Origin: Candidatus Iainarchaeum sp.
Lineage (GTDB): Archaea; Iainarchaeota; Iainarchaeia; Iainarchaeales; JACQJH01
Assembly (NCBI GenBank): GCA_016205145.1
Contig: JACQJH010000001.1
Location: 150,001-182,000, forward strand
Reading direction: 5' to 3'
Length of the DNA: 32,000 bases
The notes under the pieces were generated by a model. That model saw nothing but the letters and a program-made list of their open reading frames with translations. It was not told the DNA's origin and searched no databases. Positions 3,437-32,000 of the stretch are shown one piece after another. The stretch's first letter is position 1; each line of letters begins with the position of its first letter. Made by a program: the position numbers and the translations under genes.

Positions 3437-4051
3437 ATGCCGGAAACAAAGGCAGGGCTTGTCAGGAAGGCAATCCTGGCACAGTATGTCCTGCTCGCGT
3501 ATAACCTTGCCGAAGGGATTCTCTCGGTTTTTTTCGGGCTTGGCGCGGGAAGCGTTGCGCTTCTCGGCTTCGGCTTGGACAGTTTTATCGAGGCGGCTTC
3601 AACTGCCATAGTGCTGTTGCGCCTCAAAAAGTCCGGGAAAGTGCCGGAAAAAGTGGAGGAATCGCATGAATTGCGCGCATTCCGGCTGGTCGGAGCGCTC
3701 TTTATCCTGCTTGCAATCTACGTGTCCTTTGATTCCGCCAGAAAGCTCCTGCTGCATGAGCAGCCGCAGGCAAGTCCGGCAGGGATTGCGATTGCCCTCG
3801 CTTCAATTGTTCTCATGGGATATTTTTCAAAATACCGCCACGGTCTTGGCCATGAAATCGGCAGCCGCGCCCTCATTGCGGATTCCAGGCAGACACAGCT
3901 TTGCGTTTTCATGTCTTATGCCCTGCTTGCCGGCATTGGCTTGAACGTTCTTTTCGGCTGGTGGTGGGCTGATCCACTGGCGGGAATTGTGATTGCAGCC
4001 TTGGCCTTCATCGAAGGAAAGAAGGCGCTTGAAGGCAAAACCTGCTGTTGA
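3437..4051 (+). CDS. Cation diffusion facilitator-like cation transporter (membrane domain only)
   Basis: Six hydrophobic segments with CDF-like motifs (GSVALLGFGLDSFIEAAS; GSRALIADSRQTQLC; WWWADPLAGIVIA). No cytoplasmic C-terminal domain. Confidence 0.7.
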   Translation: MPETKAGLVRKAILAQYVLLAYNLAEGILSVFFGLGAGSVALLGFGLDSFIEAASTAIVLLRLKKSGKVPEKVEESHELRAFRLVGALFILLAIYVSFDSARKLLLHEQPQASPAGIAIALASIVLMGYFSKYRHGLGHEIGSRALIADSRQTQLCVFMSYALLAGIGLNVLFGWWWADPLAGIVIAALAFIEGKKALEGKTCC

Positions 4052-4124: not shown

Positions 4125-4510
4125 CACTCAAACTTTTCTTCGTCTTCGGGGCTTTCCTCGGACTCTTCTTCCTCGTCTTCGGATTCTTCGGAGTCCTCTG
4201 AGGGTTCTTCTTCGCTTTCCTCTTCGGAGTCTTCTTTTTCAGAGTCCTCGTCTTCGGAGCTTTCGCTTTCCTCGGCTTTTGCCTCGCTTTTGCCGACGAT
4301 TTCGGAGAATGCAACGCTTTTCCTTATCGCGTTGATTTTGACCTTTATCTTGTCGCCTTTTTTTGCGCCCGGCACTATGATGACAAAGCCCTTGATTTTG
4401 GCTATGCCATCCCCTTTCTCGCCGACGCTTTCGATTTCAACGTCGTATTCCTGGCCTTCCTTCACGGGCTTGTCAGCCGGAAAAGAGTTTCTTGGAAATC
4501 TGCCATTCAT
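4124..4510 (-). CDS. TRAM-domain protein with about 55-aa poly-acidic/Ser C-terminal tail
   Basis: KPVKEGQEYDVEIESVGEKGDGIAKIKGFVIIVPGAKKGDKIKVKINAIRKSVAFSEIV is the small archaeal TRAM fold pattern. Tail: SEAKAEESESSEDEDSEKEDSEEESEEEPSEDSEESEDEEEESEESPEDEEKFE. Confidence 0.8.
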   Translation of the reverse strand: MNGRFPRNSFPADKPVKEGQEYDVEIESVGEKGDGIAKIKGFVIIVPGAKKGDKIKVKINAIRKSVAFSEIVGKSEAKAEESESSEDEDSEKEDSEEESEEEPSEDSEESEDEEEESEESPEDEEKFE

Positions 4511-4570
4511 TTATGCTCACTCTCCCATAAGTCTGAATGATTTTTGTACGAATGATCTTTTTTTGCCTGG

Positions 4571-5296
4571 TCAGAACCTTCTGCGCGGGGTGAATTCCCT
4601 TCTGTCGCCGAATCTCCTGAACGGCCTTCTGCCCTGCTGCCTTTCTTCGTCTTTTTCCTCGCCTTCCTTGACAATGTATTCGAATTCCACGAGCTTTTCG
4701 TCAAACTTGGCCTCGTCTTTGAGCGCGCCGCTTTTTTTGAGCAGCTCTTTTGCCAGCAGCCAGTATACGAGGGCAAGGCTCTGCCTTCCCTTGTTGTTTA
4801 CCGGTATTACCATGTCAATGCCCCTGAGCGAATTGTTGGTTGATGCGAGCGCAACCACCGGGATTTTCACTACTCCGGCTTCCTTTATGGCCTGCTCGTC
4901 CGCGTCTGGTTCGGTGCAGAGCAAAACTTTGGGTTCGAAGAACTGCGTCGATTCCGGGTTTGAGAATGTTCCCGGCACGAACCTGCCCACGAACGGCCTT
5001 GCCCCGACAACTTCGCAGAATTTTTTTGCCGGCGTCTGGCCGTAAACCTTTCTTGAAACGACCGCGATTTTCGACGGTTCGAATCCTGAAAGGAATTCTG
5101 CAGCCATGCGGATCCTCTGGTCGATTGTTGCAATGTCCAGAACGTTCAGGCCGTCCTTTCTTTTCTTGAAAATGTACCTTTTCATGTCGCCTGACGTGAA
5201 TTTTGTGCCGATGTGGCAGCCTGTCTTCAGGTATTTTTCGCTCGGCACCAGCGTTTTTTCGCCTGCCGTGGTTTCCGTTGTAGTTTCTTCAGCCAT
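4571..5296 (-). CDS. rps2: 30S ribosomal protein uS2
   Basis: Trimmed to ATG 5296 (MAEETTT...KYLKTGCHIGTKF...LNVLDIATIDQRIRMAA...VVSRKVYGQ...PGTFSNP...LLCTEPDADEQAIKEA..IPVVALASTNNSL). The upstream 111 codons are read-through across rpoN. Confidence 0.95.
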   Translation of the reverse strand: MAEETTTETTAGEKTLVPSEKYLKTGCHIGTKFTSGDMKRYIFKKRKDGLNVLDIATIDQRIRMAAEFLSGFEPSKIAVVSRKVYGQTPAKKFCEVVGARPFVGRFVPGTFSNPESTQFFEPKVLLCTEPDADEQAIKEAGVVKIPVVALASTNNSLRGIDMVIPVNNKGRQSLALVYWLLAKELLKKSGALKDEAKFDEKLVEFEYIVKEGEEKDEERQQGRRPFRRFGDRREFTPRRRF

Positions 5297-5977: not shown

Positions 5978-6397
5978 TCACCATTTTGCGCCCAGCATCG
6001 CGCTTAATTCTTCGACCGTGACAAAGTTGTGCTTTTTTTCGCTCAGCGCGCTTTCAACGGTTTCAAGCTTTTCGTTTTTGAGTTCTTCCGGCACGCCTAT
6101 GAAGACCTTGACGTTCGCGTACGCCTTTCTTCCGCTTGCCCTCTCGGACGGCAGCATTCCCTTGATTGCCTTCCTGACAATCTTGTCCGGCATCCTGCTC
6201 CATTTGGGGCTCATGTGGGGATTGCCTTTTGCGGTAAGGTTGAGCCTTGTCTTCCATTTTTCCGCAAGCCCGACCCTTGAGCCCGTGAAGCCCGCCTTTT
6301 CGGCGTTCACCACGTTGATTTTTTCGCCCGCAAGCGCTTTTTTTGCCAGCACGGAAGCAAGCCTTCCAACAACGAGGTTTGAAGCGTCAACGTTCAT
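5978..6397 (-). CDS. rpl13: 50S ribosomal protein uL13
   Basis: MNVDASNLVVGRLASVLAKKALAGEKINVVNAEKAGFTG... ATG 6397 is preceded by AGGTGG. The ORF-track start at 6406 is GTG. Confidence 0.93.
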   Translation of the reverse strand: MNVDASNLVVGRLASVLAKKALAGEKINVVNAEKAGFTGSRVGLAEKWKTRLNLTAKGNPHMSPKWSRMPDKIVRKAIKGMLPSERASGRKAYANVKVFIGVPEELKNEKLETVESALSEKKHNFVTVEELSAMLGAKW

Positions 6398-6406
6398 TTT
6401 TCCCAC

Positions 6407-6781
6407 CTAACCGATTATTACAATGTTCTCCGGCTTTTCATTTTCCTCTAAAAGCTGGTTTATTGAAAGCGCCTTGCCCTTGACGCCAATCTTGTCGATT
6501 GCCTTTTGGCTGAAATCGAAGGCGCAGACCTTGGCCTTCACTCCGATTTCGCCTGAGCCGAGCACCTTGCCCGGCACAAGCAGGGTTTTGCCGGAAAACT
6601 TTTTCGCCATTGCGTCAACCTTCCAGAGGTTCATATGTATTCTTTTCCTGCGCGGCCTTTTCAGCTTTTCCGCAACCGCTTTCCAGACGGCCCTCTTTTC
6701 CTTCCTGCCTTTCTTTTCAAGCGCTAGGATGAGCTCCTTGGCTTCCAGGTTTTTCGGCCCTTGGTCTTTTCTTGTCTTCAT
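6407..6781 (-). CDS. rpl18e: 50S ribosomal protein eL18 (L18e)
   Basis: Position between tRNA/rpoD and L13. Translation: ...LILALEKKGRKEKRAVWKAVAEKLKRPRRKRIHMNLWKV...LLVPGKVLGSGEI. Confidence 0.9.
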   Translation of the reverse strand: MKTRKDQGPKNLEAKELILALEKKGRKEKRAVWKAVAEKLKRPRRKRIHMNLWKVDAMAKKFSGKTLLVPGKVLGSGEIGVKAKVCAFDFSQKAIDKIGVKGKALSINQLLEENEKPENIVIIG

Positions 6782-7811: not shown

Positions 7812-8333
7812 TTACTTTCCCCTTTTGCCCCTGTTCCGCTTTTTTTTCCTGCAGCCGTCGTGCGGCAATGGCGTTACGTTTTCTATTTTCCTTATCCTGA
7901 GGCCGTTTCTTGTCAGGCTCCTGATTGCGGCTTCCGCTCCCGGGCCTGGAGAAGCGGGCTTGTTGCCGCCCGGCCCCCTGACCAGAACGTCGACTTCGAA
8001 AATTTCCTTTTCCTTCGCCTTGTCAGCCGCTATTTCAGCTATTTTCATTGCAGCGTAAGGGCTGCCTTCCTTGTGCTGTGCCTTTATGACCTGGCCGCCC
8101 GAGCATTTTGCGATTGTTTCGGCGCCGGTTATGTCCGTTACAAGCATGATTGTGTTGTTGTGTGACGCGAAAAGGTGCACTATGCCGCGCTTTCCCCTCG
8201 GCGTGTATTCCCTGCGTTCCCTGTAAGCCGGGGCTTCTTCCTGCTGTGTTTCCTGGCTTTTGGCCTGCGGCTTTTCTTCCGCTTTTTCCTGTGCCTTTTG
8301 GCCTGATTCGTGCGCGCTTGTTTCTTTAGGCAT
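7812..8333 (-). CDS. rps11: 30S ribosomal protein uS11 with about 45-aa N-terminal low-complexity extension
   Basis: [31 protein letters not shown]...[33 protein letters not shown]...[33 protein letters not shown]. Confidence 0.95.
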
Positions 8334-10177: not shown

Positions 10178-10664
10178 TTTTTCCGCCCCTGAAATGTTCA
10201 AATGCTGTGAACGCGAGGTTTATTGCAGCGCTGAATATCAGCGACAGCAAAACATACCATCCAATCCAGCTTGTCTGCTCGTAAAACACTATGCTCCAGT
10301 TGCTCCCGAACCATGGCACGGGCACGGGCAAATCGATTATTGCCTTGCCGTACAACGGAGGGATGACAAAAACGAAAACTGCCAATGTGACGGGAAGGTA
10401 GAAAAGCAGGTACTTGTTCATGGCCTGCATGCTTTCAAGCGAGATTTCCATCATTTCCTTCTGGACCGCCTCAAGCTCCTTCATTGCGTTCTTGTCATCG
10501 GTTTTCTTCATTAACTCCTTTGCCTTTGCCTGCTTTTCCTTGAGCTTTTTCTGGCTTGCCTTCTGCTTTTTTGTTATGCCCATTTTTTCCTGGAGCGCCC
10601 TCGACCCGATTGCGAGCAGCGCGCTTATCACGGCAATGTCTGCCGCCGGGTTAATGAATGCCAT
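10161..10664 (-). CDS. DUF106 / EMC3-TMCO1-like membrane protein (archaeal Oxa1/YidC-superfamily candidate)
   Basis: TM1, then a Lys/Glu-rich coiled-coil (KKQKASQKKLKEKQAKAKELMKK...LEAVQKEMMEISLESMQAM), then 2 TM helices. Sits at the conserved position downstream of secY. Confidence 0.7.
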   Translation of the reverse strand: MAFINPAADIAVISALLAIGSRALQEKMGITKKQKASQKKLKEKQAKAKELMKKTDDKNAMKELEAVQKEMMEISLESMQAMNKYLLFYLPVTLAVFVFVIPPLYGKAIIDLPVPVPWFGSNWSIVFYEQTSWIGWYVLLSLIFSAAINLAFTAFEHFRGGKNAEKK

Positions 10665-10680
10665 TTTAAAACCCCGACCT

Positions 10681-10756
10681 GATTGAATTGCCGGAATTCA
10701 ATCCCAGAAAATAGCGCAAGCAACCATTATTTGTCATGTAAATGTTATAAAAAGCT
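10681..10756 (-). promoter_or_regulatory. Candidate promoter (TTTTTATAA box) plus 9-bp leader hairpin upstream of the DUF106 gene
   Basis: Minus strand reads AAAAGCTTTTTATAACA (10742-10758). Perfect hairpin gattgaatt-gccgg-aattcaatc (10681-10703) lies 17 nt upstream of ATG 10664. Confidence 0.35.
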
Positions 10757-10823
10757 TTTGACGCGCCGGGCACACTTGCCTCTGCCGCCTCCTGAAATGG
10801 CCTTGGAACCTTTGCCATTGTGC

Positions 10824-10935
10824 CTGTTTTCACTTGAAAAACCTCTCCGAGGCAGGGGACTCCGTCCCCTCGCGCGCCCCTTGAGCCTTTAATGCTGTTT
10901 CTGTTTTTCACTTGAAAAACCTCTTCAGCAGGGGG
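10824..10935 (-). repeat. Family-1 intergenic insert downstream of secY, flanked by a duplicated secY 3' end
   Basis: ttttcacttgaaaaacctct occurs at 10827-10846 and 10905-10924, with extended similarity over 10824-10857 and 10901-10935. Between them lie hairpin AGGGGAC-TCC-GTCCCCT (10854-10870) and a core that is near-identical to 24355-24386. Confidence 0.75.
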
Positions 10936-12299
10936 TGCGTCTGCATGAGCTGTTCCTTTGCCAGATCCTCGTACAGCCTGTAGACTATGCCGACCGTGAG
11001 CAGTATGCCTGTGCCGGATGCCAATGCTCCGACAGTCATGTCGCCGACGCCTGCAAGCAGGGCAACAAAAATCGAGCCGATGATTGTTATGGGCGGAATG
11101 TACTTTTCGAGTATGCTGAGGATGATGCGCTTGTCGCGCCTGAAGCCTGGAATGTACATTCCTGATTTTGAGAGCTGTTCGGCGACCGCTTCCGGCCCCT
11201 GCCCGCCCATGTTGACCCAGAACATGCCGAAGACAACGCAGCATGCGGTAAGCACGATGATGTAAGCCAGGCCCTGCACCAATGCCGCGCTCGTGGCGGC
11301 GTTCAGGCCGATTGTGATAAGGCCTTCTATCAGGGGCAGGCCGCCGACGCTCGGAACAGTTGTTATGTATGCCAAAAAGTCGAACACGCCTTTCAGCAGC
11401 ACTCCGATTACGGGAATGTTGCCGACAGCGAGCGCCCAAATGCGGATGTTTGCAAACAATGCAACCGCAAGTATGACTGGAATGTTTGAAACGTACAGCA
11501 GTTTGACCGGAAAGCGCCCGCCCATGCCGGTTTTTCCCATTGCAATCGGAATGTTGACGTGCATTCCTTCCGCGAACACGATTATCAAAAAAATCGCAAA
11601 GACTATCAGTATGGGCAGTATGAACGAAATGAAGTCAAATGTCTTGACGAACATGAACAGGTATCCGCCGTCTGCAAGCAGTGGATTGAGGCCAAGGCTT
11701 GTTATCAAGTCAATCGGCAATGGCGGCCTGAAAACCTGCCAGAGGAAAGACTGTGCAACGCCGCCCGCAATGAAAAGGCTTATGCCCGAACCTATTCCGT
11801 ATTTTGAAACCACTTCATCCAGGTAAAGCAGTATGAGCGAGCCGAGCGCAACCTGCAGTATGACAAACGGAAGCATGCCGGGATATGGTTTCAGCAGCCC
11901 GGACATCGTGTAGACCGCGGCTTCGAAAAAGCACAGCACTATTGCAAAAAGTTTCTGCAGGCCCTGGAAGTGCGCCTTGCCTTTCGGATCGGTCAGGTCT
12001 ATTTCGAGTATTTTTCCGCCGACAAGCAGTTGCAGTATGATTGACGCCAGGACAATCGGGCCGATTCCCGCCGTAATGAGAGTTCCGATGTTGCTTGCAA
12101 GGATTACTTGCAGTGATTCAAGCTGGCCCGCATTCGCGGCCTGGTCGATGCCGACAACAACCACTGCACCCATTATGAAAAAGAGAAGCAGTGCGCCCGC
12201 GCTCCACATTATTTTCTGTTTCAGCGGCGGCGAGGCTTCAGGGTTTTTGACTTCCGGCAGCAGCCTGTACACCGGTTCCAAAGCCTCGACTATTCCCAT
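10908..12299 (-). CDS. secY: Protein translocase subunit SecY
   Basis: 463 aa, 10 TM helices. Starts MGIVEALEPVYRLLPEV..P; contains GIGPIVLASIILQLL and LLYVSNIPVILAVAL. Sits after L15. Confidence 0.95.
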   Translation of the reverse strand: MGIVEALEPVYRLLPEVKNPEASPPLKQKIMWSAGALLLFFIMGAVVVVGIDQAANAGQLESLQVILASNIGTLITAGIGPIVLASIILQLLVGGKILEIDLTDPKGKAHFQGLQKLFAIVLCFFEAAVYTMSGLLKPYPGMLPFVILQVALGSLILLYLDEVVSKYGIGSGISLFIAGGVAQSFLWQVFRPPLPIDLITSLGLNPLLADGGYLFMFVKTFDFISFILPILIVFAIFLIIVFAEGMHVNIPIAMGKTGMGGRFPVKLLYVSNIPVILAVALFANIRIWALAVGNIPVIGVLLKGVFDFLAYITTVPSVGGLPLIEGLITIGLNAATSAALVQGLAYIIVLTACCVVFGMFWVNMGGQGPEAVAEQLSKSGMYIPGFRRDKRIILSILEKYIPPITIIGSIFVALLAGVGDMTVGALASGTGILLTVGIVYRLYEDLAKEQLMQTHPLLKRFFK

Positions 12300-16630: not shown

Positions 16631-16813
16631 TCAACTGTACTTTGAGAACCCCATCTTCTCCGCGACTTCCTTGAAGCAGCGCCTGCAAATGTTCAAACCA
16701 TACTTCCTTATCAGGCCGGCCCTGACGCCGCACATCTTGCACTTCCTCGCCTTCTTCTCGGCCTTCAAGTCCTTCTTCTGCCTTTCATTGCTGCCTGAGT
16801 TCATTGCGCTCAT
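16631..16813 (-). CDS. rps14: 30S ribosomal protein uS14 (zinc-binding type)
   Basis: ...[40 protein letters not shown]. Confidence 0.93.
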
Positions 16814-16934
16814 TGCACTTCAACCCCGAGCCGATTTCGTCCGGCTGGTTCGACGACGGGTATCTCGCTTTGCTCGATACCCATCTGCGCCGTACTGTAA
16901 AATTCAATTTTTTTCATTGCACGTCCACCCCGAA
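16811..16934 (-). repeat. Family-2 intergenic insert splitting the L5-stop/S14-start junction, flanked by a 20-nt duplication
   Basis: cattgcacttcaaccccgag (16811-16830, carries the S14 ATG) versus cattgcacgtccaccccgaa (16915-16934, carries the L5 TGA): 17/20 identical. The insert carries hairpin agccg-atttcgtc-cggct (16829-16846) and blocks shared with 22950-23048. Confidence 0.75.
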
Positions 16935-18536: not shown

Positions 18537-18603
18537 AAAACATCAACGCTTTCTTTTCCCGCTTCCTTCCGGTTCATTCCTTCATTTCGCATTTCTTTTT
18601 TTT

Positions 18604-22949: not shown

Positions 22950-23048
22950 CGTTTCACCACGGCGATTTCGTCCGCCGAGTCCGACGCACTATGCTCCTTT
23001 CAGTCGCATAGCGCTGGCTCGCGTTGCTCGCATTCTATAACCATCTTT
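22950..23048 (-). repeat. Family-2 intergenic insert between L23 and L2
   Basis: Shares with 16831-16913 the hairpin loop atttcgtc (stem cggcg/cgccg, 22960-22977), the block ctcgcgttgctcg (23018-23030, versus ctcgctttgctcg 16864-16876) and ataaccatct (versus atacccatct). Also has its own hairpin gcactatgc...gcatagcgc (22986-23013). Confidence 0.7.
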
Positions 23049-23495
23049 TTAGATTACTCCCATCTTTGTGGCAATCTCGTCTGCCTTGAATTCCTTGTTG
23101 ACCTTCACAATCGCCTTTTTTCTTCCCTTCAAATCGTTGATAATCCTTATTGCCCCGACCTTTATGCCGTACAGTTCCTGCACAGCCTTTTTCACGGACT
23201 GCTTTGTAGCTTTCCTGCTCACGATAAACGACAGCTTGTTCTGGGTTTCAATCATGCCGACCGCTTTTTCAGTTATCAGCGGGTACAACACGATTTCAAA
23301 ATCCTTCAAACCCTGTTCAGCGGAAACCTTCTGCTCAAAGCCTTCCCCGGCTTCGGCTTTTTTTGCCTTCCTGGCCTTCACTGCAGGCTGTTCAACTGCG
23401 GCTGCCTTTCTCGCCTTCGCCTTGACGGCTGATTTTGCCGCGGCTTTCTTCGCCTTTTTTACCGCCTGTGCAGCCTGCTTTTTGACTTTTGCCAT
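23049..23495 (-). CDS. rpl23: 50S ribosomal protein uL23 with about 60-aa Ala/Lys-rich N-terminal extension
   Basis: ...LYPLITEKAVGMIETQNKLSFIVSRKATKQSVKKAVQELYGIKVGAIRIINDLKGRKKAIVKV. ATG 23495 follows AGGTGA; the ORF-track start at 23507 is GTG. Confidence 0.92.
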   Translation of the reverse strand: MAKVKKQAAQAVKKAKKAAAKSAVKAKARKAAAVEQPAVKARKAKKAEAGEGFEQKVSAEQGLKDFEIVLYPLITEKAVGMIETQNKLSFIVSRKATKQSVKKAVQELYGIKVGAIRIINDLKGRKKAIVKVNKEFKADEIATKMGVI

Positions 23496-23503
23496 AAAAA
23501 TTT

Positions 23504-24307
23504 TCACCTTTTGCTTAGGGCGTGGATTGCCTTCTCCGTCCAGATCGTCAACCTGCCGGCCTGGCAGCCCGGCGCAAGCAACACTGCATTCAGGCTGTCC
23601 AAAGCGACTATTTCAACGCCTTCAAGGTTTCTCGCTGCCTTGTAGACTTTCGCCGGCTTTTCCGTCACTATGAGAATGCTTTTCTTTTTCTTGGTCGTCC
23701 TGCCCCTTCTCTTGCCTTTCCCGGCTCTTGCCTTGCGCTTTCCCTTGGCGCTTTCAACGTCCGCGTTCAAGCCGAACTTTTTCAAAACCAAAACCACGTC
23801 TTTTGTCCTCGCGATTTCCGAGAATTTGTCCTCGAACACCACTGGCAGAGAAATTTTTTCATTCAAAACATGCCTTTTCGAGACAAGCTCCCTGTTCGCG
23901 GTTGTCGCAATCGCGGAATCCAATGCAGCCCGCCTCTCCTTCTTGTTGATTTTTTCACCCGTCTTCTTCTCGGCTTTCGGCGGATGCGCCTTCGGTCCGC
24001 CAACGGACTGCGCAACCCTTGCAACCCTGCCCTGCATCAGGTTTCTCCTGTTCTTGAGCCTCGGCAGCCTTGCGTGGCCGACGTTAATGTTCCTTTCGCC
24101 TTGCGGCATATACCTGCTGCCCTGGTATCTCGCAGTATTGTCCCTTCCCGCTGGCCGGTAAGAGCCTTTCGGCTGTTTCGCGTTCGCCTGCGCCGACAAA
24201 ACCGCCCTCTTGATGAGGTCGGGATGGTATGGCGTGGCAAACACCTTCGGCAACGGAATTTCCTTTTCCGTGCCGCCATCCAGTGCCAAAACCCTTGCTG
24301 CCTTCAT
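23504..24307 (-). CDS. rpl4: 50S ribosomal protein uL4
   Basis: MKAARVLALDGGTEKEIPLPKVFATPYHPDLIKRAVLSAQANAKQPKGSY..AG...RGPKAHPPKAEK. ATG 24307 is preceded by GTGAT; the ORF-track start at 24313 is TTG. Confidence 0.95.
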   Translation of the reverse strand: MKAARVLALDGGTEKEIPLPKVFATPYHPDLIKRAVLSAQANAKQPKGSYRPAGRDNTARYQGSRYMPQGERNINVGHARLPRLKNRRNLMQGRVARVAQSVGGPKAHPPKAEKKTGEKINKKERRAALDSAIATTANRELVSKRHVLNEKISLPVVFEDKFSEIARTKDVVLVLKKFGLNADVESAKGKRKARAGKGKRRGRTTKKKKSILIVTEKPAKVYKAARNLEGVEIVALDSLNAVLLAPGCQAGRLTIWTEKAIHALSKR

Positions 24308-24432
24308 AAACAATCACGTTGAAATATCCATTATCACTTTGAAATGTACTCCACGCAGGGGGCTCCGTCCCCTCGCACGCCCCTGAAACGCGGACTGTCC
24401 TCGCACGCCCCTGAACTTGCCTTCATCTAACA
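24308..24432 (-). repeat. Family-1 intergenic insert splitting the L3-stop/L4-start junction
   Basis: Tandem 17-mer cctcgcacgcccctgaa (24371-24387, 24399-24415). Hairpin AGGGGGC-TCC-GTCCCCT (24357-24373). The flanking junction tgccttcat..atcactttgaaatgta is present twice (24299-24348 and 24418-24447). Confidence 0.8.
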
Positions 24433-25488
24433 TCACTTTGAAATGTAATCCACCTGGCTTATGTCCGGCCCTTTCAGGACAACTTTGCGGATGTTCTTGC
24501 GCAGGCCGATGACCCTTTTTGCCGGACCCGGAATGCTGCCCGCCAAAAGCAAAACAGTGTTTTTCGCCAGGCCGTAATTTGAAAAGCCGGCGCCCGGATT
24601 GACTTCTTCCGGCTTTGCAATCTTCAAAATCTTCTTGTTGTATTCCGTGCGCGTGTGATAGCCCATCTGGCCCGCCCTTGCAACAGTCCACATGACTGTC
24701 GAGGGATTCCAAGGCGAAATCGCGCCGACTGTCCTGGTCTTTTTCGCTTTCGGCCTCGCGGTCTTTATGCCGAACCTTTTGACAACGCCCTGAATGCCCT
24801 TTCCCTTGGTGACAGCCTTAACGTCAACGAATTCGGGCGCGGCAAAAACGTCTTCCGCCGAAATTTCCTTTCCAAGCTTTTCCATTGCAAACGCGGTCTG
24901 CTGTCCGACATTGCCTGAAAGCTTGACTTCCGAGACTTCCGGTTTCTTCTTGCCGATGCCCGTCAGATAGGGTTGCGTATGAACGAGCAAACAAACTTCC
25001 AAAATCCTTGCTTTTTCCTTTTCCAAATCGCCGACTGTTTTCGGCTGTTTCACGGTTTCCGCTTTTGCCTTTTTTCCCTCTTTTGCTTCAACGCCTTTTT
25101 TGCCTTCCTTTTTCGCCCCGAAAGAACCGATTTTTCTCGCCAAATGCTTTTCCTGCCTTTCAGCCAAAACGTCAAACAACGCCCTCGAACCATAGCCCTT
25201 GTCGTCTTTCGCGTACGCCCTGATGCCGAAAACCTTCAATGGCGGGGCTTCCAGCACAGTAACAGCTGATGCGACTTCCTGCCCGACGGTCGTGCCCTTA
25301 GGGTGGGTGTCCTTTCCAAGAACGTGCGCCATGCCTGCCTTGTAAGCCAAAAAGTTCAATGGCTTCGAGGCCTCGCCTTCCTTTGCCTGGGGAGCCTTGA
25401 ACGAGGTGAAAGTAGGCGTTTCCTTAAGCGCCCGCTTTCTCGGATAATAAGCCAGGCTTCCGGACCTGGACTTGTGCTTCTTTGTCAT
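24433..25488 (-). CDS. rpl3: 50S ribosomal protein uL3 (first gene of the cluster), with a KE-rich internal insertion
   Basis: MTKKHKSRSGSLAYYPRKRA...FLAYKAGMAHV...VTKGKGIQGVVKRFG...ISPWNPSTVMWTVARAGQMGYHTRTEYNKKIL. Confidence 0.96.
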   Translation of the reverse strand: MTKKHKSRSGSLAYYPRKRALKETPTFTSFKAPQAKEGEASKPLNFLAYKAGMAHVLGKDTHPKGTTVGQEVASAVTVLEAPPLKVFGIRAYAKDDKGYGSRALFDVLAERQEKHLARKIGSFGAKKEGKKGVEAKEGKKAKAETVKQPKTVGDLEKEKARILEVCLLVHTQPYLTGIGKKKPEVSEVKLSGNVGQQTAFAMEKLGKEISAEDVFAAPEFVDVKAVTKGKGIQGVVKRFGIKTARPKAKKTRTVGAISPWNPSTVMWTVARAGQMGYHTRTEYNKKILKIAKPEEVNPGAGFSNYGLAKNTVLLLAGSIPGPAKRVIGLRKNIRKVVLKGPDISQVDYISK

Positions 25489-25722: not shown

Positions 25723-25974
25723 CTAATCGTAAACGTTCCGCCTGTGCCCGGCTTTTGTGACCAGAATCTGCTTTTTGCCGAAGTCCAAATCGGCAATAAC
25801 CCGATAGTCTCCGACCCGCAGCTTGTAGTCCTGCCTTCCCTGCAACCGTTCAAAAAACAGTTTTGGCTCTTCTTTGGCTTGCCGGAGTTTTGAAAAAATG
25901 CGCCTTTTTGTTTCCTGCTCAAGCCCGTTCAGTTCCCTGAGGGCTTTTTTGTCAAAAATCAGTTCGAAAGCCAT
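25723..25974 (-). CDS. RelE/ParE-family type II toxin
   Basis: 83 aa: MAFELIFDKKALRELNGLEQETKRRIFSKLRQ...LQGRQDYKLRVGDYRVIADLDFGKKQILVTKAGHRRNVYD, the typical RelE/ParE pattern. Directly abuts the upstream antitoxin (TGAATG). Confidence 0.85.
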   Translation of the reverse strand: MAFELIFDKKALRELNGLEQETKRRIFSKLRQAKEEPKLFFERLQGRQDYKLRVGDYRVIADLDFGKKQILVTKAGHRRNVYD

Positions 25975-26223
25975 TCAGAGTCCCAGAATCTTTCTGGCTT
26001 CCTCTTCTGAATAGTACTGGCCTGCTTTGATTCTTTTTCTCGCTGCCTCGATTTCAAGGGCGGTTTTCCTGCTCAATTTCGGGTTGTTTTTCGCGGTTTT
26101 GCCTATGAAAACAAGCTTTCGGATAATCTCGTCGAAAGTTTCGCTTTCGTATTCGCGGAACGCTTCAAGGTTTGACTTTGTTTCGGTTTTCAGTTTTATG
26201 GTTGTTATAGTGCTCATGCGCAT
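25975..26223 (-). CDS. Type II antitoxin (archaeal DUF217/VapB-like N-terminus plus RelB-like C-terminus)
   Basis: 82 aa: TTIKLKTETKSNLEAFREYESETFDEIIRKLV...EIEAARKRIKAGQYYSEEEARKILGL. Sits immediately 5' of the RelE-like gene. Confidence 0.7.
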   Translation of the reverse strand: MRMSTITTIKLKTETKSNLEAFREYESETFDEIIRKLVFIGKTAKNNPKLSRKTALEIEAARKRIKAGQYYSEEEARKILGL

Positions 26224-26257: not shown

Positions 26258-29200
26258 TTATCCTATGCAGGTTTGCCCCGCCACGAGCGTTGCCTCGAAA
26301 TCGTCCAGGCTTGTTCCGCCCGAGCCCTGCTTGGAATAGACTGTCAGCGGGTTCCAGAAGAAAACGCTTTTGTCGCCGGAATCCGTGAGGCAGACTTGCC
26401 CGTCTTTGACCAATCCGAAAACGTCGTTCAGTTCGCTTACCGTGTCATTGTTCGACTTGCTGTTCTTTTGCATTCTGCCCAATCCGCCCAAATGGACTGA
26501 CGTGCTGTGCTCGCCGTCCATTGTGTTGAATGAAAGCTTTCCTTCCGCCGGCGAAAGCGATTTGAGCACGAAGTTTGACTGTGCCGGCGCGTAAAGGATT
26601 GTTTTCAGGAACACGTCTCCCGTTTTCACTGCATTCAGCCAGTCGATGGCGTAAGCGTTTTGCGCTCCGCTTACAGGGTCTGCGGTCTGTCCGCGCCTGT
26701 CTGGCCTGAGCCTGAAAGCGTTTGTCGAATAATCGCCTGTGAAGTCCCTGCAAGCCGACAATCCCGACCAGTAGCCTAAAACCGAGCCCACGACTTTCGG
26801 AGAATCGTTTTCGAACAGCTGGTAGTATGCCGAGAACCTGTCGTTCTTCTGCCCGGCAACGTTCATTTTCATCACGACTGGGGTTGCGTAATTCGGCGAG
26901 AACGTCAAAAGCTTTTCATTTCCCGTGCCCTGCCTTGCGATTGAAAGCAGTGCTCCCCTTGTGTCTGCCGCGCCGTTGATTTTCGCGGCATCGGTTTCAA
27001 TTTTTGTCGCAAGCGTCTGCAATGCGTTCGAGTTTTCAACGGGCTTTGCCTCGACGATGTTCTGTCCGGCTTCGGTTGAAATTTTGACCGGCGCGCCCTG
27101 GTTCAGGTAATTGAGGCCATAGCCCTGCCTGCCGTTGTCAGTGCCGATTCCTATCTGTCCATCGAAGGGCAGGTAATAGAACATTGACGCGGGGTTCGGG
27201 TAATCGGCATAGCTGAATTTGACTGTTGCCTGCGCTTTAGGCTTTCCATCGGAGCCGAAGAATTTCCAGTCGTTTCCGAAAACAACGCGCAATTCGGCGT
27301 CGTAAACGCCGGCATCAGGCAGGACATCCGAGTCGGGCGTGTACCTGAAGTCAAGCTTTGACGTGTCGTTGAAATAATCCGCAAACCTGCCCGTGGCATC
27401 CGAGTCAAAGTAGCTTGGCGTGTTGTAGAATGTCTTGTTCGAATAAAACTGCGCGAAGTCCTTCTGGAAGTCATCCGAATAACCGTCCCTTATCAAATTG
27501 ACGCGCGGTCTCAGAATCCTGTGCAGTGTTTCCTTGTCTGGCACGTCTTTTGTCCAGTGCGGTTCTCCTTGGTCCTGGCTGACGAGCTGGCCGAAGAAGG
27601 GCAGTTCCCTGTCATAGAATGCTTCAAGGCCAGTAACTCCCGGTGCAATGTCGAAAGTCGTATTGTTCAGCCAGCACTGCGAAGCGTTTTCCCGCGCAAT
27701 GTTCCAGAAAATAACTGAAATTGCCTTTGTTGCATACTTTTGCGCTTCCGTGCCTGAAAGGCCCTGGATGAACGCGGAGTCAAAGCCTGCAACAACCGAG
27801 TACGGGTCAATGTTTTTTGGCAGCTCTCCTGCATCGAAAACAAATTCTTTCGTCGTGCCCCTGGCAATGCTTGATTCCTGGCCAGCAAGGCTTTTCGTGA
27901 AACTGTTCTGGGGCAGGCCGTTCGCCGACAACACAACCTTTGCCGTCCTGTCCGCGTCGGAGAGGTTTTCGACCTGCACCTTGAAAGTGAAATGGTTTTC
28001 ATTCGCCGCGTCCTTTTCCAGCAGGATTTTCTTGAAGTAAACTTTTCCGCTTTGCGATTCGCTTTGGTTTCCGTTGCTGGTGTTCTGCTCCGCATACGCT
28101 TTTTTCAAGGCGTATTCCGGGTCGGTCGGGCAGGCAAACGAGGGGTTTGCGTTCAGGAAATCGCGCAGGAACTGCATTCTTTGCGTCAAGGCAATCGAGA
28201 ACTGCGTTGCGTCGCAGTAAATGCCATCCGGATTGTCTGCATCGCAGCTCCAAGCATTGATGTTGTTTGTTCCATCAGTTGACCATTTCCAGTTCAAATT
28301 GATTTTCGGCAAGGCTTTTTCTCCGGTTACGCCCCTTCCCTCGCATGCCGCGCTTGCAACGTCCGCGCGAATCGGCTCCCATTCCTGCACTTCTTTTGTC
28401 TGAACGCGGATGTGGAATTTTTGCGAGTAATGCCTTTCGCTTGTGCCGGAGCATGCGCCTTCATCCGGGCCATTGCCGATGTTGAACTGGTCGACAGTGC
28501 CGCTTGAACAAATGACATCATAGCTTTGGTCGCCGCTTCCAGTCCTTCCTTTACTGCTGTCATGCAATGCGTCGCCGTTGATGTGCTCGGTTGCCCCGAC
28601 TTCGAGTATGGCGAATTTTGGCGTGTCAGCCTGGTAGCCGTCATTCGAGAAAACGATTTCCTGCATTTCAACGTCTCCTCCGCGGCCTTCCTCAAGGTTC
28701 CATTTCGGCCTGATTTTGCCGTCCAGGCCGCTGACCTTGAGCTGGTCGTCGGTTGAATCCGGCGGAACCATTTTGTTGCCGTCTTTCGTCACAACCGTCA
28801 TGCCGGAAATGTTCAGGACATAATCGTTCATGGGGTTGACAGCCGAAACGTCATGGCAGGAATACATCTGGTCGGCAAGCCAGTTGACAACCATGTTAGT
28901 AATCCAACTCGCAACAAGCGAAATGCCGAAGCTTGCGGCCAGATTGCCTAGCTGTGAAAGCTGGCCTTGGGCGGAATGGAGTTTGGCTTGGGTTTGTTCT
29001 AATTTTCCATATAGGTCTCCCGATGCTTCTTGTCCCGTGCCACCAATGGCATCTATTTCGCCCCTAATGCTTGCCACTTTTGCGCTTAACGTGGCGATTT
29101 TCACAAGCGACCCCAGCATCGGCAGCGCGGCGTTCAGGAACTTGTAGGTCGAGTATGCGACGTACATCAGCGTCGCGGTCTTGATGTATTGTTTCACGTT

Positions 29201-32000
29201 GTCCCTTTCGCTGTTTGCAACGTTTTCCCACACGCAGCCGTCCGCTTTCACGTGCACGACTTCCTGGTAGGCCGAGTTCACAACCGTTGTCTTGTCCTGC
29301 AGGCTTGGGAAAACCTTGAAGTCATATCTCAGCAGTTCGAAATAGTCTTTGCCTCCGAACGGCTCGCTTGCTTTCGGCCTGTCCGGCGGGCTCGTTACAA
29401 GCACGTCGTCCTTGCGCAGTTTTCTCGGAGCGTTTCCTGCAAGGTTGCCGTAAACGTTTATGCCGTAAATGCCTGAAATGTCGGAATTGTTTGTCACTTT
29501 GATTGTTTTGGATTTCTGGCTTGGCGTCAAAAGGAAATCCTCTTCGTCAAGCGACAACCCCCCTTCCGTTCCCCCCGCGCAGTGGCTGTCGTTATAGCAG
29601 AGTTTTATGCGCACGTCCTTGTTGAGCGAAGGGCATTTTTCCGTTGAAATTGAAAGTTCGCCTTCAGGGTCGAAGAAAACCGTGTCGGGGTTGTCCTGCA
29701 GTTCAAGTTTTCCGTCTTCAGGCGTGTAGGCTATGCACGTTGAAAGGTCTATTATGCTGATTGTGCCTTCAACGTCCCTCACTCCCTGCACTTCGTCGAA
29801 TCCTGATTGTTTTTTCAGCAGGCCTTTCACTTCAATCTTTACCGCAGTCGTCTCGTTTTGCGCGCCGGGCTTGGCTGTAAAGACAAAGCTTGCAACCAGG
29901 CTTTCCCCGGAATTGATTTTCGCCTGCACGTCAACCGGCACATCAGGCGTCAGGGCGTATGTGCCGATCGGCGTGCCGTCGATTGTTTTGAGTGAAACCG
30001 AAACGTCGCCCTGGTATGGCGCGGGGTGGTAAGTAAACTGCAGTCCGTCAAGCGCTATCGGCGCGCCTTCAAACTGGCAGTTGTTTGAAATGTTTGAAAT
30101 GTGCGGCCCGGTTTTTCCGGCATCGGTTGAATCGTTCCATTCGAAGTTGTCGACTGAAACGCATTTGTCGGCAGGAGTTTCCCCGAAGCCGATTGCAACG
30201 TTCAATGGAATGAACACGTCATAGGTTTTTGCGAACGCCTGGTTCTGGAACGTGAGCCAGACCCACCCGTCAAGGCTTTCCTGCCTGTCGACAATGCCGG
30301 CTGAAACGAGCTGTGTCTTGATTATGTCCGCGAGCTCTTTTGCCTGCAAGGGCTTTATTTCCAGGCCGTTAGTTTTTGTCTGCAGGAACGAAAGCATTGC
30401 AGTATAATCCAGTACTCCGAAAAACCTTGAGCTTTTTTCCTTGTAGTCCGATTTCGTCAGCTTCAGTGTTTCGCCGATGTGGCTTGTCGCAGTGAGAATC
30501 GTGGAAATAGTTTCGTTGGTTTTTGCCCGCGTGTCAAGCCTTGACTGCAGTTTTTCCGGTTCGAATGAAAGTATCTGGCCTGAAACAGTCAGAGCGAGCG
30601 GCTTGTCGAGCCAGTAGCCGATTTTTTCGGCTCCGAAAACAATTTGCGTCAATGGCGAGCTTGCCGGAACATGCACAATAACTTCGCCGTTGTCGCTGCT
30701 CATGCAGTTGTTCCCTGAAACGCATGCGAGCCAGCTTTCGCTTGCATCGGCAAGAATTTTTTTTGCCTTGACAAGCACGCCGGAAAGCGGTTTTCCCGAA
30801 CTGTCTTTGACTGTCACAAGAATGTCTTTCTGTTCGAATGCGTTGACCGCCGAGGGTTCGACTGCCAACGCCATGTCTTCCTTGCTTGCCGTCTTGAATT
30901 CTATTTTTTTCCTGTAAACCGTCTGTCCGCCTGAAACAATGCGCGCTTCAAGGCCTGAGCTTTCAAGCTTTTTGCCTTCAATCCACAGCTTTGCGAGAAC
31001 GCTTTTGCCCTTTGAAAAGCCGCCAAGCGGAATTGCCGGCGACTTGAATGCGTTGAAATTGGCGTTCGCGTTTTCATGCGAGTCCGCGTCAAGCAGCGAG
31101 TATTTGCGGATGAGAATGCTTTCGTTGTCCGCACCATGCGAATCGACGCTTGCAATTATGAGCTGTATGCCGTTGAATTGCGCGTCGGAATTGTTTTTGA
31201 TTACAAAGTTCAGTAGGTATGGGCCGAAGACCGTCAGAGCGTACGGCTTGTCGTCGAGGAAAAGGTTTGACTGCTCGTCCAAAACATCCTCGCCTGCATA
31301 GCAGAAGTCCTGGCCGCATGTTACGGGCACGCCTTCCAGGAATTCGTTGATTTCAAACGTCTGCGCGAACAATTCCTTTTTCGCCGCGGTTTCACGCGCG
31401 CTTCCCAACCCGGCATCGGCCGGCATCCTGCTGTAAGTGTCTCCGCTGGCGGTCCAGGCCCGGTAGTGCATTGGCAATGGTGTCATCGGCGCAGTGCTTT
31501 TCTTCACCACGACCTCGAACGCCGCGTAAACCACTTCCGGTTCGGTTGTTGAAAATTTCGCATCCGCCCACTTGCCGACGCTTGCAGAGCTTTCAAGCAG
31601 GTTTTCAGCGTCGCTTCCAAGCGGCGGATTGAATGCGGAACCTTTCTCTATCTTGGCATTGCCGGCATCTATTTCGCCGATGTAAAGCGCGTCCCCTGAA
31701 ACAGTGTTCGTGTCGCCGGTCCTGAAATGTATGCCTGCCTGCTGGACAGCTGAGGGCAGTTTGAATTTGAAGAGTGCGAGATATCGTTTTCCTGATTCCA
31801 TTGCCTGGGCTTCGGAATAGTTTTCAAGCATTCCTTCGAACGAAACGCTTGGCTGGGAAATGCTGCCTTGCAATGGCAGTTCGGCCTTGAATTCCGCGAG
31901 AGTGTCGGGCCACAGCATTTTCGGGATTGTCTGTGCCTTCACGTGGTTGGGCGAGGTTATGACTGCAAACACTTTTCTTCCGGCCCTGATTTTCTGGGAA
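26258..32000 (-). CDS. Giant Cys-rich putative surface protein (more than 1913 aa; N-terminus outside window)
   Basis: Single uninterrupted frame from TAA 26258-26260 to the window edge; codons stay open beyond the ORF-track GTG at 31972. Many spaced Cys pairs and beta-rich segments, including a prealbumin/CarboxypepD_reg-like stretch (ILVTVKDSSGKPLSGVLVKA...SDNGEVIVHVP). Central hydrophobic hairpin at about 28870-29180. No catalytic motif recognised. Confidence 0.85.
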   Translation of the reverse strand, partial: SQKIRAGRKVFAVITSPNHVKAQTIPKMLWPDTLAEFKAELPLQGSISQPSVSFEGMLENYSEAQAMESGKRYLALFKFKLPSAVQQAGIHFRTGDTNTVSGDALYIGEIDAGNAKIEKGSAFNPPLGSDAENLLESSASVGKWADAKFSTTEPEVVYAAFEVVVKKSTAPMTPLPMHYRAWTASGDTYSRMPADAGLGSARETAAKKELFAQTFEINEFLEGVPVTCGQDFCYAGEDVLDEQSNLFLDDKPYALTVFGPYLLNFVIKNNSDAQFNGIQLIIASVDSHGADNESILIRKYSLLDADSHENANANFNAFKSPAIPLGGFSKGKSVLAKLWIEGKKLESSGLEARIVSGGQTVYRKKIEFKTASKEDMALAVEPSAVNAFEQKDILVTVKDSSGKPLSGVLVKAKKILADASESWLACVSGNNCMSSDNGEVIVHVPASSPLTQIVFGAEKIGYWLDKPLALTVSGQILSFEPEKLQSRLDTRAKTNETISTILTATSHIGETLKLTKSDYKEKSSRFFGVLDYTAMLSFLQTKTNGLEIKPLQAKELADIIKTQLVSAGIVDRQESLDGWVWLTFQNQAFAKTYDVFIPLNVAIGFGETPADKCVSVDNFEWNDSTDAGKTGPHISNISNNCQFEGAPIALDGLQFTYHPAPYQGDVSVSLKTIDGTPIGTYALTPDVPVDVQAKINSGESLVASFVFTAKPGAQNETTAVKIEVKGLLKKQSGFDEVQGVRDVEGTISIIDLSTCIAYTPEDGKLELQDNPDTVFFDPEGELSISTEKCPSLNKDVRIKLCYNDSHCAGGTEGGLSLDEEDFLLTPSQKSKTIKVTNNSDISGIYGINVYGNLAGNAPRKLRKDDVLVTSPPDRPKASEPFGGKDYFELLRYDFKVFPSLQDKTTVVNSAYQEVVHVKADGCVWENVANSERDNVKQYIKTATLMYVAYSTYKFLNAALPMLGSLVKIATLSAKVASIRGEIDAIGGTGQEASGDLYGKLEQTQAKLHSAQGQLSQLGNLAASFGISLVASWITNMVVNWLADQMYSCHDVSAVNPMNDYVLNISGMTVVTKDGNKMVPPDSTDDQLKVSGLDGKIRPKWNLEEGRGGDVEMQEIVFSNDGYQADTPKFAILEVGATEHINGDALHDSSKGRTGSGDQSYDVICSSGTVDQFNIGNGPDEGACSGTSERHYSQKFHIRVQTKEVQEWEPIRADVASAACEGRGVTGEKALPKINLNWKWSTDGTNNINAWSCDADNPDGIYCDATQFSIALTQRMQFLRDFLNANPSFACPTDPEYALKKAYAEQNTSNGNQSESQSGKVYFKKILLEKDAANENHFTFKVQVENLSDADRTAKVVLSANGLPQNSFTKSLAGQESSIARGTTKEFVFDAGELPKNIDPYSVVAGFDSAFIQGLSGTEAQKYATKAISVIFWNIARENASQCWLNNTTFDIAPGVTGLEAFYDRELPFFGQLVSQDQGEPHWTKDVPDKETLHRILRPRVNLIRDGYSDDFQKDFAQFYSNKTFYNTPSYFDSDATGRFADYFNDTSKLDFRYTPDSDVLPDAGVYDAELRVVFGNDWKFFGSDGKPKAQATVKFSYADYPNPASMFYYLPFDGQIGIGTDNGRQGYGLNYLNQGAPVKISTEAGQNIVEAKPVENSNALQTLATKIETDAAKINGAADTRGALLSIARQGTGNEKLLTFSPNYATPVVMKMNVAGQKNDRFSAYYQLFENDSPKVVGSVLGYWSGLSACRDFTGDYSTNAFRLRPDRRGQTADPVSGAQNAYAIDWLNAVKTGDVFLKTILYAPAQSNFVLKSLSPAEGKLSFNTMDGEHSTSVHLGGLGRMQKNSKSNNDTVSELNDVFGLVKDGQVCLTDSGDKSVFFWNPLTVYSKQGSGGTSLDDFEATLVAGQTCIG

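Follow-up and report, generated by a model that had tools for sequence, protein, structure and literature searches.

The ribosomal-protein operon and its L3/L4 junction

We analysed a stretch of 32,000 nucleotides (nt) from Candidatus Iainarchaeum sp. (assembly GCA_016205145.1, contig JACQJH010000001.1, positions 150,001 to 182,000), referred to here as the window, with emphasis on a small insert between the genes for ribosomal proteins L3 and L4. The window has a G+C content of 51% and carries on its minus strand an archaeal ribosomal-protein gene cluster, which extends from L3 (25488) past secY (10908). The L3 protein has an identical counterpart in a metagenome-assembled genome labelled Candidatus Diapherotrites archaeon (DPANN). 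An initial annotation had described the L3/L4 spacer as an insert between two copies of the gene junction, in an operon where nearly every other junction is compact. The latter statement has to be withdrawn, as the spacers at L23/L2 (99 nt), L5/S14 (~100 nt), L14/L24 (67 nt) and between secY and the next gene (243 nt) are also expanded. Distant relatives of the L3 protein (57% amino acid identity) show only that junctions are compact as a rule.

On the minus strand L3 ends in ...TACATTTCAAAGTGA (in a longer reading ...GTGGATTACATTTCAAAGTGA), with its stop codon at 24435-24433. The sequence ATGAAGGCA stands 6 nt past this stop, at 24426-24418, and the L4 frame does not run on from there. The order after the L3 end is T, GTTAG, ATGAAGGCA, AG and then two units that each start with TTCAGGGGCGTGCGAGG; the second unit is followed by GTGGAGTACATTTCAAAGTGAT, AATGG, ATATTTCAACGTGAT (24327-24313), TGTTT and the L4 start, again ATGAAGGCA, with its ATG at 24307. 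The repeats and the hairpin listed in the initial annotation were all found where it had placed them, including the tandem 17-mer (exact copies at 24415-24399 and 24387-24371, with a spacing of 28 nt) and the GC hairpin GGGGACGGAGCCCCC at 24372-24358. The flanking duplication, put there at about 30 nt, measures 22 nt. The parts of the junction, all on the minus strand, are as follows.

24432-24453, minus strand: target duplication, copy 1, GTGGATTACATTTCAAAGTGAT; the last L3 codons, the TGA stop (24435-24433) and 1 nt
24355-24431, minus strand: family-1 insert of 77 nt, not in the closest relative, made of three parts
24431-24416, minus strand: 5' arm of the insert, GTTAGATGAAGGCAAG
24415-24388, minus strand: unit 1 of the insert, 28 nt, TTCAGGGGCGTGCGAGGACAGTCCGCGT
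24387-24355, minus strand: unit 2 of the insert, 33 nt, carrying the hairpin, TTCAGGGGCGTGCGAGGGGACGGAGCCCCCTGC
24358-24372, minus strand: core hairpin GGGGAC-GGA-GCCCCC, with one A.C mismatch; the conserved 3' part of family 1
24333-24354, minus strand: target duplication, copy 2, GTGGAGTACATTTCAAAGTGAT; 21/22 identical to 24453-24432
24308-24332, minus strand: remainder of the ancestral L3/L4 spacer, 25 nt, AATGG ATATTTCAACGTGAT TGTTT; 100% identical in the relative L206

The repeats named in the initial annotation are the top-scoring short-range direct repeats of the 32-kb window, where shuffled sequence gives 0-1; the 17-mer has three matches against 0.14 expected. An independent Logan assembly, made from run SRR12113383, has the L3/L4 spacer in identical form.

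Empty sites in relatives

Relatives were drawn from the other-metagenome members of the 90%-identity protein clusters that contain the window's L3, L5, S14 and DUF106 proteins, and their contigs are ~91-92% identical to the window at the nucleotide level. The closest relative found, L206 (~91%), is without exactly 99 nt of the window's L3/L4 junction: the two segments aligned by BLAST share 22 nt of the relative, and 77 nt of the window find no match. Its junction reads ...CAAAGTGA TAATGGATATTTCAACGTGATTGTTT ATGAAGGCA... (at greater length ...GTTGAGTACATTTCAAAGTGA TAATGGATATTTCAACGTGATTGTTT ATGAAGGCA..., a base-for-base match to the downstream part of the window's junction) instead of ...CAAAGTGATGTTAGATGAAGGCAGC..., the empty site that had been predicted. 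The prediction itself, an insertion with target duplication that left both genes intact, is borne out by this relative, which is without the insert and has a single copy of the duplicated sequence. An extra degenerate copy beside L4 had also been noted; it is present, but it does not belong to the event, since the empty site of L206 contains it and the copy is thus ancestral. The 25-nt remainder of the ancestral spacer includes this older tandem copy of the L3 end, 20 nt long, and at 24331-24314 a mini-ORF (open reading frame) of 5 codons (MDIST and a stop).

Comparable empty sites are found elsewhere. At L5/S14 the aligned contigs L207-L210 have a plain ATGA overlap where the window has an additional 104 nt, made up of a 20-nt duplication and 84 nt, and the gene calls give the same ATGA overlap in L211 and L212. 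The end of secY, which in the window bears another insertion, is single copy in L214, L215, L217 and L218. A further insertion lies at the end of the tyrosyl-tRNA synthetase (TyrRS) gene of Candidatus Anstonella stagnisolia, and the corresponding gene end is single copy in L084 (91% amino acid identity), is tandemly duplicated over 19 nt with nothing in between in L083, and has a degenerate second copy in L085. Because relatives show empty sites, the insert-plus-duplication reading holds. Apparent extra events in L207 and L210 were discarded as runs of N in the scaffolds.

Copy 2 at L3/L4 resembles the single copy of L206 more than copy 1 does. The same tendency was noted in three events (window 24432-24453 versus 24333-24354; window 16914-16933 versus 16810-16829; L011 4240-4376), where the downstream duplication copy is the closer of the two to the single copy of the relatives and the upstream, functional one has diverged more. 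Two of the changes are third-position changes from Glu to Asp (GAG>GAT and GAA>GAC).

Family 1: a conserved 3' hairpin core

A homologous core had been proposed after secY, and this proposal stands. The core spans 30 nt (10881-10852), 28 of which are identical to the L3/L4 insert (28/30, 93%, E ~1e-7), and the secY copy is a true homologue, with its own 20-nt duplication and a single-copy site in relatives.

10827-10924, minus strand: second family-1 insertion, after secY; duplication AGAGGTTTTTCAAGTGAAAA at 10924-10905 and 10846-10827 (20/20)
10904-10847, minus strand: 58-nt insert after secY, with core at 10881-10852 and hairpin at 10869-10855

The conserved part of the family, on its 3' side, reads GGGGCG[T/C]GCGA-GGGGAC-GGA-G[T/C]CCCC-TG. 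A scan of public genomes and metagenomes, among which the window's own genome is not represented, was made with GCGAGGGGACGGAGNCCCC and gave 77 loci, of which ~75 are single chance matches in high-GC bacterial contigs without a flanking repeat. Both matches in contigs of ~50% G+C (L068 and L011) carry flanking repeats. In L068 a duplication of 26 nt (25/26) encloses an insert of 40 nt. In L011, which is from Candidatus Anstonella stagnisolia (Micrarchaeota), the core is identical at 21/21 positions and a 37-nt imperfect duplication of the TyrRS gene end surrounds a 63-nt insert. In all four family-1 copies (4/4) the core occupies the 3' side of the insert and is 1-14 nt away from the downstream duplication copy, and the 5' side differs among the copies in both length and sequence. 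Within the L3/L4 insert, GTTAGATGAAGGCA aligns with ATTAAAGGC, which has the corresponding place in the 5' arm of the copy after secY. The viral contigs scanned gave no match to family 1.

The copy in L068, also present in L220 and called copy D here, lies in the spacer between cutA and a CoA-ligase gene. This spacer is 17 nt long in the window's organism (L221 6271-6287) and ~200 nt long in a sister population (L220 4730-4935, L068 170-370), where it holds an outer insertion with an imperfect ~25-nt duplication and, at its 3' side, a perfect 8-bp hairpin, GGAGGGGG-TTT-CCCCCTCC. Copy D is nested inside this outer insertion. Since it lies mid-spacer and antisense to the neighbouring genes, a rule that the duplication always spans the 3' end of a gene was given up. 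A second candidate rule, TGA as a special mark of the duplications, was dropped because ~75% of stop codons in the window are TGA in any case.

Around the secY insertion, a 257-codon alternative-frame ORF (10666-11439, minus strand) runs without a stop through the final 530 nt of secY, the element inserted after it and the spacer; its unique part gave no Pfam match, and it is probably not a gene. The EMC3/DUF106 gene is preceded by AAAGCTTTTTATAACA (~10741-10756, minus strand), which resembles an archaeal TATA box. In comparison with L214-L218, the ~100 nt after this motif are 100% identical and the spacer just upstream of it is highly variable. In L213 (1-423) the EMC3-like gene has sequence other than secY upstream of it, and homology to the other relatives begins at GGCACAAGTGGCG; this points to a contig that is rearranged or chimeric.

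In Anstonella, the TyrRS gene that bears the family-1 insertion has as its divergent neighbour a gene for a phage-type integrase with a C-terminal zinc ribbon (L011 1892-3043, minus strand); L083 has no recognised integrase at the homologous position. In Micrarchaeota relatives of Anstonella, stretches of 17-20 nt at gene 3' ends are duplicated in tandem with nothing in between, and one 22-nt duplication surrounds a 28-nt insert, after an acylphosphatase gene (L083 11040-11080; L085 1400-1440 and 1710-1745; L084 3249-3325).

Family 2: a paired-hairpin unit

The L5/S14 event surfaced in a scan for gene ends that recur downstream. Its insert and the L23/L2 spacer share a common architecture, which defines a second family.

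16810-16933, minus strand: family-2 insertion at L5/S14; 20-nt duplication TCGGGGTGGACGTGCAATGA (16933-16914) and TCGGGGTTGAAGTGCAATGA (16829-16810)
16913-16830, minus strand: 84-nt insert at L5/S14, with hairpin 1 at 16885-16855 and hairpin 2 at 16845-16830
22950-23048, minus strand: older family-2 element filling the L23/L2 spacer, with hairpin 1 at 23014-22986 and hairpin 2 at 22976-22961
6394-6416, minus strand: empty site of the window upstream of L13, where L213 has a family-2 insertion with a 14-nt duplication, AGGTGGAAAAATGA

Hairpin 1 has a stem of 9-10 bp and the loop GA-NN-NNN-NN-GA, and is followed by a linker of ~10 nt and by hairpin 2, G[C/G]CG-GACGAAAT-CG[G/C]C. The window also serves as the empty site for insertions in a relative: L213 has family-2 insertions at 4649-4757 and 6600-6700, one before L13 and a variant after S2, and the window counterparts (6394-6416 and ~4556-4568) hold no element. 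A Logan contig from the organism of the window begins with a partial copy, and the family then counts five copies that are complete and one that is not.

Five copies were aligned by hand on their structure. Across them, hairpin 1 has 2-4 pair types at its seven core pairs, none of which is broken, and two of the four pairs of hairpin 2 (2/4) covary. Each copy alone folds into one common shape. The fold z-scores obtained for the family are -3.3 and -2.4. L206 has an orthologous, diverged copy at L23/L2 (2574-2638), whose stem sequences differ yet still pair.

Family 2 is a defined unit of ~80 nt, with both ends similar across independent insertions. Its left junction is regular, falling after ATGA or ATGG, and the right edge of the duplication is the start codon plus 1 nt in 4/4 events (E, K, H and G, that is, family 2 and event G). 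The duplications are about 4, 14 and 20 nt long, compared with 22, 20, 26 and 37 nt in family 1. A 14-base family-2 pattern gave only chance matches among viral contigs.

Relay open reading frames

In three cases a short ORF, here termed a relay ORF, spans the insert from the stop of the upstream gene to the duplicated junction.

24334-24426, minus strand: 30-codon relay ORF at L3/L4, MKASSGACEDSPRFRGVRGDGAPCVEYISK and a stop; its start is 6 nt past the stop of L3, and the duplicate of that stop terminates it
16917-16810, minus strand: 35-codon relay ORF at L5/S14; its start overlaps the L5 stop and its duplicated TGA stop overlaps the S14 ATG (ATGA at both ends)

Past the L3/L4 relay ORF there is a 5-codon ORF and then 6 nt to L4. 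The third case, at L13 in L213, has 32 codons and an ATGA overlap at both ends, and was predicted by the gene caller. The ORFs are open and in the needed frame in 3/3 cases that have a start codon after or overlapping the upstream stop; the joint chance of this is ~1e-3, or ~1e-2 when the two junction events without such an ORF, H and G, are counted. The L3/L4 and L5/S14 relay ORFs are unannotated in the metagenome-assembled genome (MAG), as the NCBI protein accessions at L3/L4 and L5/S14 are consecutive.

A function of the encoded peptides was considered and rejected: the L5/S14 and L13 ORFs read the family-2 element in different frames, and the element cores are not depleted in stop codons. 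To judge from the reading frames, it seems to be the openness of the ORFs that matters and not the peptide. According to a recent review (PMC12548453), coupling between neighbouring genes fades past 30-40 nt in Haloferax and E. coli; in archaea most of it is lost once the distance exceeds about 30 nt. Mycobacterial interspersed repetitive units (MIRUs) seem to insert at start codons and to carry an internal ORF coupled at -4, according to the passage of the same paper that cites Supply et al. 1997. By analogy with what has been proposed for MIRUs, the relay ORFs, if translated, would preserve translational coupling across the insert.

Origin of the insertions

The comparisons show that these sequences were inserted with duplication of their targets, that the copies fall into families, that relatives are polymorphic for them, and that such events are both recent and frequent in the two lineages. 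We consider it rather probable, though by no means certain, that the L3/L4 insert is a recent, lineage-specific insertion of a short non-coding family-1 element with a mobile-element explanation, and that several small hairpin elements, of at least two sequence families, were copied into gene junctions of this Diapherotrites lineage (DPANN archaea). Such elements would be small and non-autonomous, mobilised in trans. Copying would proceed from the fixed 3' hairpin end, which abuts the downstream duplication copy, and would reach a variable 5' extent; a staggered break or a re-priming in the target, once filled in, would leave a duplication of variable length. At L3/L4 the upstream copy would keep the L3 end and its stop, the downstream copy would keep the ancestral sequence before L4, and the 30-codon ORF would hand terminating ribosomes on towards L4, as the corresponding ORFs would at L5/S14 and at L13 in the relative. 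Selection may retain only those events whose duplication covers the stop, the Shine-Dalgarno-like run and the start. We would file the case under small intergenic mobile repeats in DPANN archaea, with an integration mechanism that is possibly new.

A bolder form of this proposal is put forward tentatively and is itself doubtful: the elements might represent an undescribed class of tiny DPANN mobile elements with no inverted repeats, a 3'-terminal hairpin, target-primed copy-in and relay ORFs, moving between phyla (Diapherotrites and Micrarchaeota). Copy-in by reverse transcription or by a dedicated replicative mechanism would then produce the long, variable duplications, and landing on stop/start junctions would be an adaptation to hyper-compact genomes.

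Several results weigh against mobility. No terminal inverted repeats were found in a repeat search of 24200-24550 or, by eye, at the ends of inserts A (L3/L4), B (secY), D, E and K, and the duplications measure 4, 14, 20, 20, 22, ~25, 26 and 37 nt. No transposase, reverse transcriptase or Cas1 was seen in the window and the short loci read. Tandem gene-end duplications occur without an insert (L083, L085 and the ancestral L3/L4 spacer), so duplication may need no element. Family 1 is conserved but shows no compensatory changes, and the whole L3/L4 insert folds no better than shuffled sequence (z = +0.6). Copy number is low: family 1 has two copies in the 32 kb, and the Anstonella species-representative genome has a single exact pattern match. 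A diverged family-1-like hairpin is also resident in the secY 3' region of the relatives, and new copies could therefore be templated locally, without dedicated machinery. A classical transposase in particular is disfavoured by the missing inverted repeats, the 4-37 nt duplications and the variable 5' extent of family 1.

Many of these points are also what would be expected of the main rival, template switching in replication or repair without any mobile element (slippage, or a process like fork stalling and template switching or microhomology-mediated break-induced replication, FoSTeS/MMBIR), which we regard as unlikely though far from negligible. A nascent strand would copy a hairpin-prone donor, for example the secY 3' hairpin, re-anneal upstream and re-copy the junction, and simple back-slippage would give the tandem duplications without insert. 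The variable duplication lengths and 5' extent, the missing inverted repeats, the insert-free duplications, the hairpin resident near secY in relatives and the internal 28-nt tandem unit of the L3/L4 insert all fit, and in Sulfolobus spontaneous mutations regularly include tandem duplications and large indels (PMC7785828), which counts in the same direction. Template switching does not sit well with a family-1 core that is identical at 21/21 positions in a different phylum, nor with family 2, a defined ~80-nt unit with similar ends whose stems are kept by compensatory change. Moreover, by inspection, the E and K junctions have no clear microhomology, and the right edge of the duplication falls at the start codon plus 1 nt in 4/4 events.

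It is improbable that the hairpins serve first of all as functional RNA modules in the operon transcript (processing, stability or protein-binding sites, such as those for ribosomal-protein feedback), recruited and kept by selection, and that the duplications are incidental. Ribosomal protein operons are classic places for protein-binding and feedback RNA sites, all four window elements are sense-oriented, and the family-2 hairpins covary, with the L23/L2 copy kept at the orthologous site in L206, its stems changed but pairing. However, relatives at 91% identity lack the L3/L4, L5/S14 and secY copies, which are therefore not needed for operon function; one family occurs at unrelated junctions, and copy D is antisense to its neighbours. 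Rfam gave no match at gathering scores in the window and nothing meaningful at E up to 10 on the L3/L4 and secY regions. No hairpin with a T-run terminator was found at 24200-24560 or 10640-10960 by bacterial criteria, a weak test given that archaeal termination needs only T-runs. A C/D-box sRNA was rejected, as no D boxes were seen by eye. An RNA role is in any case compatible with mobility and not an alternative to it.

Very improbable, in our estimate, is the footprint of a Cas1-type integrase, either off-target integration of a CRISPR (clustered regularly interspaced short palindromic repeats) spacer or a mini-casposon, in which the duplicated target would play the part of the repeat. The long duplications (20-37 nt) are like CRISPR repeats, and two inserts are of about 40 nt, namely D (40) and the L3/L4 insert minus its internal duplication (~49). 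The family-1 core, however, is found at four different sites, which rules out random spacers; the other inserts are 58-84 nt long, there are no terminal inverted repeats, and duplications that range over 4-37 nt instead of having a fixed length make such a footprint unlikely. No cas gene is visible in the window, among the few ORFs screened. Least credible of all is an assembly artefact or a bulge-helix-bulge (BHB) intron removed from the mRNA: the L3/L4 and secY sites do lie in repeated sequence and the palindromic duplications at B and D allow a BHB-like fold whose excision would restore one copy, but the L3/L4 spacer is identical in the independent Logan assembly, equivalent events appear in other assemblies built with k = 141, and a brute-force BHB search fails at A (98 or 100 nt, not 99), C and E.

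Comparison with known systems

The closest known system is, by behaviour, the mycobacterial MIRU and, by size and polymorphism, the MITEs (miniature inverted-repeat transposable elements). Like the present elements, MIRUs are small non-coding repeats in junctions of co-oriented operon genes; they are regarded as mobile elements that insert at start codons, with a short internal ORF coupled downstream by a -4 overlap (PMC12548453). The elements at L5/S14 and L13 have ATGA at both ends, and the L3/L4 element uses a 6-nt spacing; those at L3/L4, L23/L2, L5/S14 and secY/next gene are all in sense with co-oriented genes, copy D being the antisense exception. In contrast to MIRUs, the elements have a DPANN archaeon as host instead of a mycobacterium, appear unrelated to them in sequence and show prominent hairpins; long tandem arrays are missing (MIRU units of 46-101 bp occur in tandem, and the only tandem here is the 28 + 33 nt of the L3/L4 insert), and target duplications of 14-37 nt are documented together with their empty sites.

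MITEs resemble these elements in being short, non-coding, multi-copy, mostly intergenic, target-duplicating and polymorphic between close relatives. The label MITE-like, used in the initial annotation, nevertheless does not fit, as it calls for terminal inverted repeats and for duplications of one fixed length: MITE duplications are usually 2-10 bp, and those seen here are far longer and not fixed. Family 1 is also polar, with a conserved 3' and a variable 5' side, and a parent insertion sequence was not found.

Repetitive extragenic palindromes (REP), bacterial interspersed mosaic elements (BIME) and enterobacterial repetitive intergenic consensus sequences (ERIC) are likewise low-information intergenic repeats with GC-rich hairpins, co-transcribed within operons and with possible effects on mRNA stability. 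Those families have no long target duplication, are tied to bacterial RAYT transposases (REP-associated tyrosine transposases) and lack relay ORFs. Membership of REP/REPIN was rejected, since a hairpin is present but every dated insertion has a duplication. An origin from IS200/IS605 (palindrome-associated transposable elements, PATE) was also rejected, given the duplications and the single hairpin of family 1; only the regular left junction of family 2 fits.

Non-long-terminal-repeat (non-LTR) retroelements, the long and short interspersed nuclear elements (LINE/SINE), share a fixed 3' end that abuts one duplication copy, a variable 5' extent and long, variable duplications. They are eukaryotic, however, and here no reverse transcriptase was found, there is no A-tail, and the regular junction of family 2 is at the 5' side of the element. 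Casposon and CRISPR integration is similar in that it occurs in archaea and duplicates a longer-than-usual target next to gene 3' ends. Casposons are large and have terminal inverted repeats and a fixed 14-15-bp duplication (PMC10359463), and CRISPR integration duplicates a fixed repeat, whereas the present lengths vary and no inverted repeats are found; casposon/Cas1 membership was rejected for these reasons.

Implications for compact archaeal genomes

A conserved ribosomal-protein operon of a streamlined DPANN archaeon thus receives many small insertions, with at least 8 events in the ~40 kb compared between lineages that have diverged by ~9%. Overlapping stop/start junctions appear able to tolerate them, the junction being duplicated and a short, putatively translated ORF spanning the insert, and this offers a natural test case for termination-reinitiation coupling in archaea. 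Long variable duplications without inverted repeats fit no characterised prokaryotic transposition mechanism. In practical terms, the elements break assemblies and create unannotated short ORFs, and could act as strain markers in the manner of MIRUs.

Other features of the operon

The L14/L24 spacer (18537-18603, minus strand) is 67 nt long and purine-rich. The L23 protein (23049-23507, minus strand) has a Lys/Ala-rich N-terminal extension of ~60 residues relative to distant relatives. Directly upstream of L3, a RelE/ParE-type toxin gene and a small DUF7557-like partner gene (25723-26223, minus strand) sit between the operon and the gene for a 1904-aa protein (26258-31972). In another Diapherotrites MAG, L080 (GCA_016932355.1), purine-rich spacers of 100-145 nt occur at four operon junctions (1670-1813, 3650-3790, 4196-4296 and 8062-8163). 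These expansions are GA-rich, and the spacer after L2 holds 2-3 degenerate copies of the L2 end, without GC hairpins.

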